Of a stretch of DNA of 10,127 nt, positions 1 to 10,127 are shown piece by piece; the first letter of the stretch is position 1, and each line of letters opens with the position of its first letter. The DNA is taken from the UHGV virus genome UHGV-0213869, one strand, 5' to 3'. The position numbers and the translations under genes were made by a program. The notes under the pieces are model-generated. The model searched no databases. It saw only the letters and a program-made list of their open reading frames with translations, and was not told where the DNA came from. This DNA is from a virus.

Positions 1-494
1 ATGCCGACGGGCAGGTCGGGCTGCCGGTTCGTGGCGCTGTCCTGACGGTGTATATCGGCTGGAAAGGTTTTGCCCTGGTATGCAAAGGGAAATTTACCGT
101 TGATGAGGTTGAACACCGGGGCGCGCCGGATGTGGTTACCATCCGCGCCCGGAGTGCAGATTTTCGCGGGACGCTCAATTCCCGCCGTGAAGGCTCCTGG
201 CATGACACCACGCTCGGTGCGATTGTTGAGGCGATCGCCTCCCGTAACAGGCTGGAAGCCAGTGTCGCTCCGTCACTGGCCGGAATTAAAATCCCGCACA
301 TCGACCAGTCGCAGGAGTCCGATGTGAAATTCCTGACCCGTCTTGCTGAACGCAACGGCGGTGAGGTGTCGGTAAAAATGGGAAAACTGTTGTTTCTCAA
401 AGCGGGGCAGGGAGTGACGGCCAGCGGTAAAAAAATCCCGCAGGTCACCATAACCCGCAGCGACGGCGACCGCCATCATTTTGCGATTGCTGAC
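1..494 (+). pseudogene. D: Internal fragment of tail protein D (P2 gpD-like), about residues 57-219, encoded on the plus strand, opposite to the rest of the operon
   Basis: Plus-strand frame reads ...DADGQVGLPVRGAVLTVYIGWKGFALVCKGKFTVDEVEHRGAPDVVTIRARSADFRGTLNSRREGSWHDTTLGAIVEAIASRNRLEASVAPSLAGIKIPHIDQSQESDVKFLTRLAERNGGEVSVKMGKLLFLKAGQGVTASGKKIPQVTITRSDGDRHHFAIAD, then leaves the gpD sequence as I recall it. It is open at the left edge of the window. Confidence 0.7.
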
Positions 495-645
495 CGGGCG
501 CGGATGGTGACTACATCCGGTGCGCCCCGGTGTTCAACCTCATCAACGGTAAATTTCCCTTTGCATACCAGGGCAAAACCTTTCCAGCCGATATACACCG
601 TCAGGACAGCGCCACGAACCGGCAGCCCGACCTGCCCGTCGGCAT
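1..645. repeat. Imperfect inverted repeat inside gene D: arm 1..152 is the reverse complement of arm 494..645 (149 of 152 identical)
   Basis: Hand alignment of the reverse complement of 1-152 with 494-645. The three mismatches (arm positions about 509, 512 and 521) are all synonymous third-codon positions in the D frame. Confidence 0.85.
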
Positions 646-811
646 CGTTCAGTTCAATATCAAGCTGGTCAGCCTCAAAGCCCCGGTTATCCGTCAGGGT
701 CATACTCATCAGACGGTCGCTGATATTGCCGGTAATATCCCTGCTGTCGAGCATCAGCATGTAATCCGGCGTCAGCGTACTGCCTGCATCAAATGTCAGT
801 GCATCCAGCAT
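476..811 (-). CDS. D: Tail protein D (P2 gpD-like late control D), N-terminal 108 residues only; ORF ends prematurely in IAK-stop at the orientation breakpoint
   Basis: ATG at 811..809 overlaps the U stop (TAATG). Translation is MLDALTFDAGSTLTPDYMLMLDSRDITGNISDRLMSMTLTDNRGF...VVTIRARSA followed by 3 unrelated codons and a stop at 476-478. Confidence 0.85.
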   Translation of the reverse strand: MLDALTFDAGSTLTPDYMLMLDSRDITGNISDRLMSMTLTDNRGFEADQLDIELNDADGQVGLPVRGAVLTVYIGWKGFALVCKGKFTVDEVEHRGAPDVVTIRARSAIAK

Positions 812-1290
812 TATCCCGCCCCCGTCATATCCGTGAATTTAGTCGCCATACTGCCAGCCTTACCGATGAGCGATTCCGCCTGTTTACCGATATCGCCATA
901 AAGCGCGGCCAGTGATTCATCAACGCGGGTGAGCGACAGCGTAAAATCAATTTTCCGGGGTGTGCCGTCTGCAAAGAAAATACTCCCTGTTTCACTCACC
1001 CTGCTGATGACATACATGCCGTAAATCATGCCAGTGCCATCCAGCAACGGCCACGCCCGGCCTTCCTCTGCCATCAGCCTGAGCGTGGTCATCGTCAGCT
1101 TTCCGCCGGTCAGTTCGGGATAAAGCACACCGGCAAGCGTCATGTTTTCCTCACCCACACCGAGAAACTGATAGGCATCCCGTTTACCAATACGGGAATT
1201 TGACGGCCAGCGATAATCCGATTCACGTTGCATGGTCTGGTGCGGCAGCGTCTGGCGCATAAAAACAAACATCCCTAACGCGAGCATCAT
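811..1290 (-). CDS. U: Phage tail protein U (P2 gpU), 159 aa, intact
   Basis: 159-aa ORF MMLALGMFVFMRQTLPHQTMQRESDYRWPSNSRIGKRDAYQFLGVGEENMTLAGVLYPELTGG..., same length as P2 gpU; sits between T and D as in P2. Confidence 0.93.
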   Translation of the reverse strand: MMLALGMFVFMRQTLPHQTMQRESDYRWPSNSRIGKRDAYQFLGVGEENMTLAGVLYPELTGGKLTMTTLRLMAEEGRAWPLLDGTGMIYGMYVISRVSETGSIFFADGTPRKIDFTLSLTRVDESLAALYGDIGKQAESLIGKAGSMATKFTDMTGAG

Positions 1291-1304
1291 TTTTCGTCAC
1301 CTCC

Positions 1305-8048: not shown

Positions 8049-8082
8049 TAGATATGTAAGCTCACACCAGAGCTCATGCAAC

Positions 8083-8610
8083 TTATTGCGGCATTTCCGG
8101 CCATTCAGGATTTGCAGGATCCACACGGCTGACCAGAACGCTGTAGCGTTCCCATGACTCCAGTCGTGCGCGCTCCTCATCCGTCGCCATATTCAGCCTG
8201 ACGGCGCGTTCCAGCGGCTGGATAACTGATTCAGCTTCGGAAAGTAACGCGGCCTTTTGTGATTCGGCCTGTTGTTGCTGTTCGTCTGCCGTATAAATCC
8301 GCTTAATCACGGCACCATCCTTAAACATCCATTTACCTGAGTCATCAGCACGTCGGTTGGAGGTAATATCAGGAACCTCGACAACGCTGAAACCTTCAGG
8401 GTTAAGCGTTGAAGCATCTCTGGTGATGCCGACAATTATATTATTCTCGTCGTAAACAATCTTTATCGTGTCTTCCTGAAAATTACTTACTTCCTCATAC
8501 CAGTTTTTTCCGTCCTCAGAGTAAAGCCAGATAACTCCGTGTTTCTTTGTTAACTCATACTGTTCCAGTGTTTTAGCGTTACCCGCTTTTATGTTCTTTA
8601 AGTGCATCAT
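8083..8610 (-). CDS. G: Tail fiber assembly protein G (P2 gpG), 175 aa
   Basis: 175-aa [44 protein letters not shown]...[30 protein letters not shown]; same length as P2 G; its start lies 1 nt after the H stop. Confidence 0.93.
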
Positions 8611-8611
8611 A

Positions 8612-9943
8612 TTAAACGCTCGCTACATTATACCAGGTGCCATTTATATACTTTTGGACGGGTCTGTAATAAACACCCGCTATATTATCGGCAGAGTTGG
8701 AACCTGTATCCTGAACATTAATACCAGACAATACATGACCTGATGGGCACTGGAAATTCCATGTTTGCCAGTTGTTCACTCCATAATATTGCTGTGAACC
8801 AAGTCGAACATCTTTCACATATCTGGAATCAAAATTGCCATAGTTGCCGGGAATAACTTGCGAACCACAAAGCCAGTTACCGTTATTATCCATGTATGCC
8901 TGACCATCGGTGCCATTGGCTGTCCTTGAGTTATTAATCATGTAGATGCCAAATTGCTTATTTCCCAGACCGCCAATCATAAATTTGCGGTCGGCATGGT
9001 CCTGACGGAGCAAAGCCTGAGCACCATCAGTGGATACCGCATTACGTCCAAAAATAACATTCTGGTCACGCATATGAATCCACATGCCTGTGCTGCTGTT
9101 AATTGCAAGGCGGTTTGCGTACACCCATGCGTTAGTTGTTATATCTCCTGTAACATCCAGAGCGTGCCCCATAGTTATGCGACCAGTTCTGAGATTCAAC
9201 GAAAAGGGGCGTAGTGGCCCGATATCACCATTTTCCCCCTCATTCTCTCGTGTGGGGATAATATGCAGGCATTCTTCAGAACGGCGAAAAATAGCACCAA
9301 AGGATGAATTAAAGATTCTCAGTGCATTGACTGTCGATATTTTTACTTCACTGCTGAAAAGGGCTTTAACAAGGACAGACAAAGCATCCCATTTAAGATT
9401 CATCAGGTCTTTTGTTGTGGTGCCCTGACGGCTTCTCCATTTGAAATATTCATTGCCGTTGTCGCCTGTTTCAAACCACATGTATGAATCAGTGTCACCA
9501 TCGGCATCATTTTTAAATCCAATCTTCGCCCAGTCAGTATTTCGAATCCAGGCAAGGATTGAGTCGTTTTCAAAAGTAAGTCCACCGGACAAGGTATCGC
9601 CATTTTTTTGCACGGCGTTCCCGGCTCGGTTTACCGTTTCCTGTAAACCGAGATATTCGATAACGGCGGCAACGGTCGATTTAGCCAGAATATCCCGCCC
9701 GACTTTTGTCAGGGTCGCCAGGCTGGCAACATCATTCCCCGTAAAATACGGAAACCTGTCTGCCGCAGTAGCAAGCCCCGCCAGCGCCGTCAAAGTGGCA
9801 TCTTTCGGTTGCTTACCCGCAAGCGCATTAGTCATGGTGGTAGCAAAATTCGGGTCATTGCCCAGCGCCGCCGCCAGCTCGTTCAGCGTATTCAGTGCGT
9901 CAGGCGACGAGTCTACAAGGGCGGCAATCGCGGCCATAACGAA
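8612..9943 (-). CDS. H: Tail fiber protein H (P2 gpH-like), C-terminal two thirds only; the frame is closed by a stop at 9953-9955 just upstream, so the N-terminal domain is missing on this strand
   Basis: Translation ..[80 protein letters not shown]...[17 protein letters not shown] matches P2 gpH from about residue 300 to the C-terminus; the C-terminal receptor-binding part is divergent. Confidence 0.88.
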
Positions 9944-10127
9944 ATTACTCAGTTAAGCAATGCGACCAACAGCACGTCTGAAACACTGGCCGCAACGCCG
10001 AAAGCGGTTAAGGCCGCATATGACCTTGCTAACGGGAAATATACCGCACAGGACGCTACCACAGCGCGAAAAGGTCTTGTCCAGCTAAGTAGTGCGACCA
10101 ACAGCATGTCTGAAACGCTCGCCGCAA
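9944..10127 (+). pseudogene. H: Fragment of tail fiber gene H (repeat region, about residues 195-250) encoded on the plus strand, opposite to the H C-terminal part; runs off the window
   Basis: Plus-strand translation TQLSNATNSTSETLAATPKAVKAAYDLANGKYTAQDATTARKGLVQLSSATNSMSETLAA matches the tandem SSATNSTSETLAATPKAVK repeats that precede FVMAAIAAL in P2 gpH. Confidence 0.75.
9950..10127 (+). repeat. Intragenic direct repeat of tail fiber H: units of about 46 bp at 9950-9995 and 10082-10127, period about 132 bp
   Basis: Both units encode Q-L-S-(N/S)-A-T-N-S-(T/M)-S-E-T-L-A-A with about 80% nucleotide identity. Confidence 0.7.

Follow-up and report, generated by a model that had tools for sequence, protein, structure and literature searches.

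The window analysed here (the whole 10,127-nt stretch of the viral genome UHGV-0213869) is probably a technical chimera with four fold-back joins (probability about 0.88). Its native form would be the intact tail module of a P2-like prophage, with the cargo gene as a normal hotspot occupant. The original prediction had offered, unranked, either a decaying prophage that retains its cargo or chimeric breakpoints in a natively intact element. The chimera and intact-element part was borne out by an identical collinear prophage in two genomes, by junctions found nowhere else in the collections searched and by duplication arms drawn from two templates. The decaying-prophage part was unsupported for this sequence.

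The window was mapped by blastn to the collinear prophage of E. coli S1-ZIM-01-A (NZ_CP145671.1; termed L001) and fell into five pieces. Two are in forward orientation (w494-2914 on L001 6001->8421 and w3240-9944 on L001 8694->15398; w, window position), and the three reverse pieces are listed in Table 1. Identity to annotated P2-like prophages was 98.6-100% per piece, with 18 mismatches in total. The junctions were placed in D at w494-496 (J1, 3 nt ambiguous), in T at w2914 (J2) and w3239-3240 (J3, with a single untemplated base at w3239) and in H at w9944/9945 (J4, blunt). These positions agree within 1-4 nt with the breakpoints predicted at about 494, 2910, 3239 and 9943. U, E, E', FII, FI, the cargo gene and G were full-length open reading frames, as had also been predicted, and were base-for-base identical to the annotated L001 genes.

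Table 1. Features of the window, with positions in nucleotides and, for inverted pieces, the corresponding L001 coordinates.
Feature	Position	Strand	Remarks
Inverted gene D fragment	1-496	+	L001 6152->5657, reverse; first 152 nt repeat w494-645 inverted
Gene D, 5' part, collinear	494-811	-	first ~105 codons
Gene U, tail protein	811-1290	-	159 aa, intact
Tape-measure gene T, 3' part, collinear	1305-2914	-	ends at J2 (w2914)
Inverted internal T fragment	2914-3241	+	L001 8716->8389, reverse; flanked by 33- and 23-nt inverted duplications
Gene T, 5' part, collinear	3240-3805	-	starts at J3
E and E', tail assembly chaperones	3798-4225	-	E 3950-4225, E' 3798-3953; intact
FII tail tube and FI tail sheath	4282-6003	-	FII 4282-4800, FI 4813-6003; intact
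Left boundary hairpin of cargo cassette	6197-6220		GTCTGCTT-TGAGTGAG-AAGCAGAC
Cargo gene	6518-7852	+	444 aa, WP_001774471.1
Right boundary hairpin of cargo cassette	7998-8021		GTCTGC-TTTTGGCACAGA-GCGGAC
Gene G, tail fibre assembly protein	8083-8610	-	175 aa, intact
Tail fibre gene H, 3' part, collinear	8612-9944	-	ends at J4
Inverted piece of H 5' half	9945-10127	+	L001 15714->15532, reverse; reaches window end

The same prophage is collinear and intact in two unrelated complete E. coli genomes from Switzerland and China (S1-ZIM-01-A and A3024, NZ_CP191562.1), where this P2-like (Peduoviridae) element is integrated between yegQ/ogrK and yegR. The intact relative is a complete 33-kb prophage running from ogr to int, and its D, T and H products are 387, 815 and 724 aa long. 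Turning back the three inverted pieces restored the gene order H-G-(variable locus)-FI-FII-E/E'-T-U-D with P2-sized products. All bases of the window then matched this prophage except the 18, each of which lies within ~105 nt of J1 or J3, and the cargo protein is the same in both. The window differs in that it alone carries the four strand-switch junctions and small inverted duplications, as well as patches of alleles of another prophage type round two of the junctions.

The four junctions are of a single, unusual type: the strand switches, with offsets of 344, 295, 302 and 316 nt (J1 to J4). Overlap at the joined points was 3, 1, 0-2 and 0 nt, in a set of four junctions only. Three inverted duplications, far beyond chance, were identified: w1-152 / w494-645 (152 nt, 98%), w2882-2914 / w3209-3241 (33 nt) and w2914-2936 / w3240-3262 (23 nt, 100%). 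Because the last two flank the inverted T segment, the T event was not a simple inversion; its structure is A-b-(bCd)'-d-E, from which a clean inversion would differ.

Invertible tail fibre genes are known from Mu, P1 and e14, and the inverted repeats that flank the T segment in the window could be taken for a programmed DNA inversion, that is, a Gin/Cin/Pin-type invertible segment or a shufflon affecting the tail fibre and tape-measure genes. This explanation is extremely improbable. It was refuted by the collinear relatives, in which the 33- and 23-nt stretches are single-copy and no inverted repeats pre-exist; the flanking repeats arose with the event. The inverted H piece comes from the 5' region of H itself and is no alternative 3' end, and no invertase gene was found anywhere in the 33-kb intact prophage.

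Of the 18 mismatches, 17 correspond to the alleles of another type of P2-like prophage (E. coli D5 type), and the remaining one abuts J3. D5-type alleles occur at w390-473 inside the inverted D fragment, at w509-521 in the collinear part of D and at w3266-3335 in the 5' part of T, and many natural prophages are 100% identical to the window in stretches adjoining J1 and J3. Between the arms of the 152-nt inverted duplication there are 3 differing sites; one arm has L001-type and the other D5-type natural alleles, so two templates contributed; the window is a patchwork of more than one. The change from L001-type to D5-type alleles within 43 nt (w347 to w390) was matched perfectly by none of 5,426 complete E. 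coli genomes. Elsewhere in the window there were no private substitutions, and the ~9.5 kb outside the junction zones was free of private substitutions, frameshifts, IS elements and deletions. J1 and J3 are embedded in patches of 120-350 nt with alleles of the second, related prophage. Such a pattern is to be expected where a small number of chimeric reads, derived from a minority template, supplied the junction and outweighed other reads in the local consensus.

Junctions J1-J4 were searched in the 5,426 complete E. coli genomes (match criterion, at least 80% coverage) and were found at 0 places. J2 and J4 were not found in GTDB species genomes or JGI metagenome contigs, and none of the four was found in IMG/VR. 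No record of the chimeric D', T' and 'T open reading frames (D and T junctions) exists in an ENA/JGI/NCBI/Logan index of 153 billion genes. Recurrence of the same breakpoints in independent isolates was looked for and was negative in every collection searched. The 441-aa 'H reading frame was shared with only one contig (L004; metaSPAdes, ERZ15610526), which runs collinearly through J4. This contig, from a public metagenome assembly, is likewise a chimera of the phage, but a different one, and shows that the P2-like tail module is prone to mis-joining in such assemblies.

A genuine degraded ('grounded') prophage, in which four in-vivo fold-back rearrangements destroyed D, T and H while selection keeps the cargo, is improbable on these data. 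A strain with two P2-like prophages could have produced them, for example, through template switching or microhomology-mediated break-induced replication, and the allele patches might in principle represent conversion tracts. Only structural genes are hit by the junctions, the cargo being intact, and P2-like elements that are defective yet retain near-identical defence genes have been reported (bioRxiv 10.64898/2026.02.27.708500). However, this history calls for four complex rearrangements that share a single unusual geometry, as well as four homologous template switches, in a phage with no other difference from intact ones. It is further opposed by the unblemished ~9.5 kb, by the different alleles of the duplicated arms and by the failure to find the junctions in the complete genomes, in three contig collections or in the gene index; no accumulation of private lesions outside the junction zones and no lesions common to related genomes were seen. 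Absence from the databases is also compatible with a very recent rearrangement confined to a single strain that has not been sequenced.

Strand switching at a replication fork also gives fold-back geometry, and two templates would be available where related phages are mixed. The window could then represent real, non-heritable molecules, namely aberrant replication or packaging products (snap-back or hairpin DNA) of an induced P2-like phage in a virome or induced culture. This is very unlikely, as four events on a single 10-kb molecule are implausible and a high frequency would be needed for assembly; moreover, the sequence holds nothing that separates such molecules from polymerase switching in vitro.

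For the technical chimera, the joins would have arisen during amplification, library preparation or assembly, the laboratory or software step being inferred. At every join the sequence stops, jumps ~300 nt and resumes on the opposite strand. The tight offsets of 295-344 nt may point to a library length scale and count among the difficulties of this explanation. Blunt strand-switch joins are not normally emitted by De Bruijn graph assemblers, which also counts against it. Proximal inverted joins are the dominant class of chimeras in multiple displacement amplification (MDA; 85%), and ~93% of them show complementarity of 2 nt or more at the joined ends (PMC1855051). Microhomology of at least 2 nt was present at only 2 of the 4 window junctions, a lower share than in MDA, although four junctions are a small sample.

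The cargo gene is an ordinary occupant of the known G/FI ('Z/fun') hotspot and a candidate defence gene. It is a variable, compositionally foreign gene (GC ~0.34-0.40, about 37%, versus ~55-56% in the tail genes) between conserved G and FI flanks, and eight loci with the same flanks hold different genes. Its product contains an N-terminal domain of the PUA-like (EVE/YTH/ASCH) pseudo-barrel fold, approximately residues 1-150, and a C-terminal FRG domain. Residues 193-282 matched FRG (PF08867) in Pfam with 79.9 bits against a cut-off of 25, and residues 166-440 matched the PADLOC profile PDC-S15 (E = 6.7e-99). R196 and H198 belong to the FRG motif. Aravind's group assigned FRG to the ADP-ribosyltransferase superfamily and suggested that it may act as an NADase (PMC9503650). 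The protein is a predicted single-gene defence system, in which a PUA-like sensor would be fused to an FRG (ADP-ribosyltransferase-superfamily) effector. Foldseek returned nothing significant. No experiment on a PDC-S15 protein turned up in the literature, and the two papers that mention this candidate system give it as an annotation. The conserved residues W16, F30, F65, F103 and W136 of the N-terminal domain are candidates for an aromatic binding cage.

The left boundary hairpin is part of a 36-nt inverted repeat (w6188-6223 / w7995-8030), and the cargo coding sequence is 100% identical in lambdoid prophages, where it lies within a hairpin-bounded cassette. The 24-nt hairpins follow the pattern GTCYGC-N12-GCRGAC, with loops that vary among relatives. 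A more far-reaching proposal, which we consider unlikely, is that the 1.8-kb cassette (w6197-8021) is a discrete unit swapped between unrelated families of temperate phages, P2-like and Qin/Rac-like lambdoid, and that the two conserved 24-nt hairpins at its boundaries serve as recombination substrates. The encoded protein would be a new modification-sensing defence protein: on recognising a modified base or nucleotide, the PUA-like domain would activate an FRG/ART-like effector that consumes NAD or carries out ADP-ribosylation. Under this proposal, the four tail-gene junctions would still be artefacts.

If the junctions were real, the prophage would be losing virion genes while keeping a defence gene, which would argue that the cargo is maintained for host benefit. 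As artefacts, the breakpoints say nothing about prophage decay or selection on the cargo, and no host benefit can be deduced from them. The element is best treated as an intact, probably inducible P2-like phage with ordinary hotspot cargo, and it is reasonable to test the cargo experimentally for its own sake. Where several related prophages share a sample, P2-like tail modules are prone to chimeric contigs, and 'broken' genes in these modules need read-level validation.

Defence hotspots of P2-like phages have been described (Rousset et al., 2022, PMC9122126; bioRxiv 10.64898/2026.02.27.708500), the first study analysing mainly the other P2 hotspot, and FRG is mentioned in neither. The window resembles the P2 Z/fun-type locus in having an AT-rich, opposite-strand gene between the conserved flanks; in related prophages the occupants are Shedu, an HNH endonuclease, a Sll1717-type ATPase or hypothetical genes. 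Compared with PADLOC PDC-S15 and FRG (PF08867) proteins, the cargo has an extra N-terminal domain of ~150 aa outside the best-matching PDC-S15 profiles. It differs from modification-dependent defence proteins that carry PUA-like (EVE/YTH/ASCH/SRA) readers, such as VcaM4I-type restriction enzymes, McrB N-terminal domains and PUA-Cal-HAD, in that its N-terminal domain has no Pfam match even at E <= 10 and its effector is FRG/ART-like instead of a nuclease or NTPase. The joins resemble MDA inverted chimeras (Lasken and Stockwell, 2007, PMC1855051) and fold-back mis-joins, since at all four the second segment is inverted and joined less than 10 kb away, and sequence between the joined points is skipped or duplicated. 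They differ from the MDA class in their shorter microhomology (0-3 nt), in their unusually uniform offsets and in the location of two junctions within patches of a second template.

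The four strand-switch junctions in the window (J1 in D, J2 and J3 in T, J4 in H) were assigned to technical chimerism, with a probability of about 0.88. From its ORF list and a megablast search against 5,426 complete E. coli genomes, the window was identified as the tail module of a P2-like prophage. Megablast placed the same element in two complete chromosomes, E. coli S1-ZIM-01-A (NZ_CP145671.1, locus L001) and A3024 (NZ_CP191562.1, loci L002 and L015). Both are annotated in the order ogrK, D, U, T, E', E, FII, FI, FRG-domain protein (opposite strand), G, H, I, J, W, V and onwards, with tail products of 387 aa (D), 815 aa (T) and 724 aa (H). 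The entire 33-kb prophage of A3024, inserted between yegQ and yegR, is annotated from ogrK through to the integrase; its set of head, lysis, tail, replication and lysogeny genes is complete, and none is annotated as a pseudogene. Extra non-core genes lie in this intact native prophage (L015 14947-15690 and 25775-27968): between V and S, the opposite strand encodes a 247-aa hypothetical protein, and the other P2 hotspot (portal gene to replication gene) holds a hypothetical protein, a ComEC/Rec2-family protein and a second hypothetical protein.

The window was mapped onto L001 using blastn and checked base by base, yielding five pieces. Breakpoints had been predicted in D, T (twice) and H, and the mapping bore them out; U, E, E', FII, FI, the cargo gene (the FRG-domain gene between G and FI) and G were likewise confirmed as full length, intact and identical to L001.

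Coordinates of window pieces, junctions and other features (pieces from blastn)
Feature	Window	Orientation or strand	L001 or other locus	Description
Piece 1	1-496	reverse	L001 6152->5657	
Piece 2	494-2914	forward	L001 6001->8421	
Piece 3	2914-3241	reverse	L001 8716->8389	
Piece 4	3240-9944	forward	L001 8694->15398	
Piece 5	9945-10127	reverse	L001 15714->15532	
J1	494-496			strand flip in D
J2	2914			strand flip in T
J3	3239-3240			strand flip in T
J4	9944/9945			strand flip in H
Cargo gene	6518-7852	+		444 aa, GC about 37%
Cargo N-terminal domain	6518-7027			residues 1-170
Common cassette segment	6197-8021		L005 9680-11504; L016 4680-6504	1,825 nt
Left hairpin	6197-6220			24 nt, GTCTGCTT-TGAGTGAG-AAGCAGAC
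Right hairpin	7998-8021			24 nt, GTCTGC-TTTTGGCACAGA-GCGGAC
Terminator-like hairpin	6108-6128	-		9 pairs, 7 G-C, then T run
Direct repeat in H	9950-9995 / 10082-10127			46 nt, 87% identical, 132 nt apart

None of the four junctions is a simple inversion. At each, the sequence runs to a point, jumps 344, 295, 302 or 316 nt and resumes on the opposite strand, and these jumps leave short stretches duplicated in inverted orientation, seen as repeats I1 (152 nt), I2 (33 nt) and I4 (23 nt). The event in T reads A-b-(bCd)'-d-E against A-b-C-d-E in the reference. Junction overlaps are 3, 1, 0-2 and 0 nt; J3 also contains a single untemplated base. Each duplicated stretch is single-copy in the collinear relatives, which therefore hold no pre-existing inverted repeats, and no invertase gene is annotated in the prophage; programmed inversion was excluded on these two grounds. 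The direct repeat in the 5' half of H is the tail fibre gene's own internal repeat, apart from the artefact.

Only 18 positions differ between the window and L001, all at 390-521 or 3216-3335 (no more than about 105 nt from J1 or J3). Chance would almost never confine them to about 440 of 10,127 nt. A second P2-like prophage type, that of E. coli D5 (L003), 96.5% identical in this region, was compared with the window. D5 alleles account for 17 of the 18 differences, the remaining one being the base adjoining J3, and all other informative sites up to position 6000 are L001-type (13 + 85 + 9 + 59 sites). Positions 494-700 and 3242-3400 match many natural prophages at 100%. Inside 330-493 the alleles switch from L001-type (at 347) to D5-type (at 390), and this stretch has a perfect match in none of the complete genomes. 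The arms of the 152-nt duplication differ at three sites, with L001 alleles at 1-152 and D5 alleles at 494-645; because they carry different alleles, duplication from a single template cannot have produced them. Judged by these alleles, the window sequence is stitched from two related templates. In the simplest account, J1 and J3 would each be backed by a few chimeric reads of a minority prophage, which would fix the consensus for about one read length round each of them, and J2 and J4 would derive from chimeric reads that belong to the major prophage. Position 125, the outermost SNP separating the 152-nt arms, lies exactly 124 nt inside the window start, which is how a de Bruijn bubble branch at k = 125 would end; the other window end has no matching pattern.

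The original prediction had left two readings open, a decaying prophage and a chimera of amplification or assembly. Decay should leave private substitutions, frameshifts, IS elements or deletions, of which there are none in about 9.5 kb; observed instead were four events sharing a single unusual geometry, together with four homologous template switches and duplicated arms that differ in their alleles. A genuine rearranged prophage remnant is improbable, and the chimera is favoured by the two templates and by the failure to find the junctions elsewhere. Queries over J1, J2 with J3, and J4 gave 1,576-1,637 E. coli records with the halves on opposite strands, none covering at least 80% of the junction query in one place. 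Eight scans with exact 36-45-mers (J2 and J4 against GTDB species genomes, JGI metagenome contigs and IMG/VR; J1 and J3 against IMG/VR only) gave zero matches. In an index of 153 billion gene positions, neither the chimeric ORFs running from the natural D and T start codons into junction-derived sequence nor the 533-aa 'T ORF was recorded. Fixed degradation, recognisable by the same breakpoints in several isolates, was consequently not upheld in the collections searched.

The 441-aa 'H ORF was recorded in one public metaSPAdes contig, L004 (ENA ERZ15610526 NODE_19094, 3,974 nt). This contig is collinear with L001 through J4 (L004 134-3879 = L001 15447->11702), and shares the ORF with the window because the same internal ATG was called. 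It is itself a chimera of this phage, joined differently from the window, with J' fused to 'H and the cargo-upstream region to 'D (chimeric sites 134-150 and 3877-3879), and its junctions are absent from complete genomes. Assemblies evidently tend to mis-join this tail module. The L004 breakpoints (L001 5686 and 15447) lie 29 and 49 nt from J1 (5657) and J4 (15398). Chance is an unlikely source of two coincidences of this kind (p of roughly 0.002 under a simple model), and the sites may be places where the assembly graph branches between co-occurring prophage haplotypes.

The cargo's domain fusion and its cross-family, hairpin-bounded cassette merit a separate look, independently of the broken genes. 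The protein is annotated as FRG domain-containing (WP_001774471.1) and matches Pfam PF08867 (E = 2.8e-22, residues 193-282) and the PADLOC candidate PDC-S15 (E = 6.7e-99, residues 166-440). Published work assigns the FRG domain to the ADP-ribosyltransferase superfamily and proposes that it is an antiviral effector and possibly an NADase (PMC9503650). Full-length homologues are common both within Enterobacterales and outside this order. An AlphaFold2 model (30 homologues; pLDDT 82, pTM 0.83) predicted with high confidence a PUA-like (EVE/YTH/ASCH) fold, the kind found in modified-base readers, for the N-terminal domain, whose invariant residues are R34, E37, T39, E68, R133, H135, W136 and K139. 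This domain had no Pfam sequence match and no significant Foldseek match, so the assignment holds at fold level only. A survey of EVE-domain contexts does not mention FRG (PMC7641849), and a recent preprint shows a PUA-like sensor that activates a defence effector on binding a modified mononucleotide (bioRxiv 10.64898/2026.01.15.699771). Our best guess, a tentative one, is a single-protein defence in which the PUA-like domain would detect an infection-associated modified base or nucleotide and FRG would respond by consuming NAD+ or ADP-ribosylating a target.

Both the candidate family to which the cargo belongs and the hotspot that it occupies were already known. The G/FI flanks are common to related P2-like prophages, which carry Shedu, an HNH endonuclease, a Sll1717-type ATPase or hypothetical genes there; the FRG gene occupies this locus in only 2 of the 5,426 complete genomes. 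Thousands of assemblies (2,907 index blocks) encode the identical protein, which in the longest contigs sits in Qin/Rac-like lambdoid prophages, between hokD and a DUF977 gene; Escherichia phage Tritos carries a copy with 97.5% identity in the same position. In the isolated P2-like phage Peduovirus P2_2H1 (LR595870.1, 320-1684), a full-length homologue with 44% identity lies past the replication gene, at the other P2 hotspot; members of the family are therefore present at both P2 hotspots and at a lambdoid one. The cargo CDS is 100% identical between P2-like and lambdoid copies (0 nucleotide differences), the common segment differs from the Qin/Rac-like copies at 3 positions, and the Tritos cassette is also nearly identical. 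Both segment ends are hairpins with the same GTCYGC/GCRGAC stem, part of the inverted repeat I3, and no other copies were found in 38.5 kb of prophage and flanks (0.2 expected by chance). Homology between prophages with different cargo stops at the hairpins in most P2-like loci compared, and earlier on the left side in two of eight; at a lambdoid locus with other content, the right hairpin is retained together with half of the left. The hairpins may be insulating terminators that double as short homology for cargo swapping, which is offered as a lead and not as a result. A separate terminator-like hairpin between the cargo and the FI start would end leftward transcription ahead of the FI promoter region.

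Broken tail genes beside an intact cargo, as originally described, do not amount to a genuine biological feature. A library length scale is suggested by the uniformity of the offsets, at about 300 nt, and aberrant products of replication in vivo are a still less probable source of the junctions than a rearranged remnant. Phi29 amplification yields proximal inverted joins as its main artefact: 85% of chimeras are inverted, and most have join points separated by less than 10 kb (PMC1855051). Up to 70% of long reads from amplified DNA can be chimeric (bioRxiv 10.64898/2026.06.11.730069). Over the four joins in the window, microhomology is shorter than is typical of MDA.
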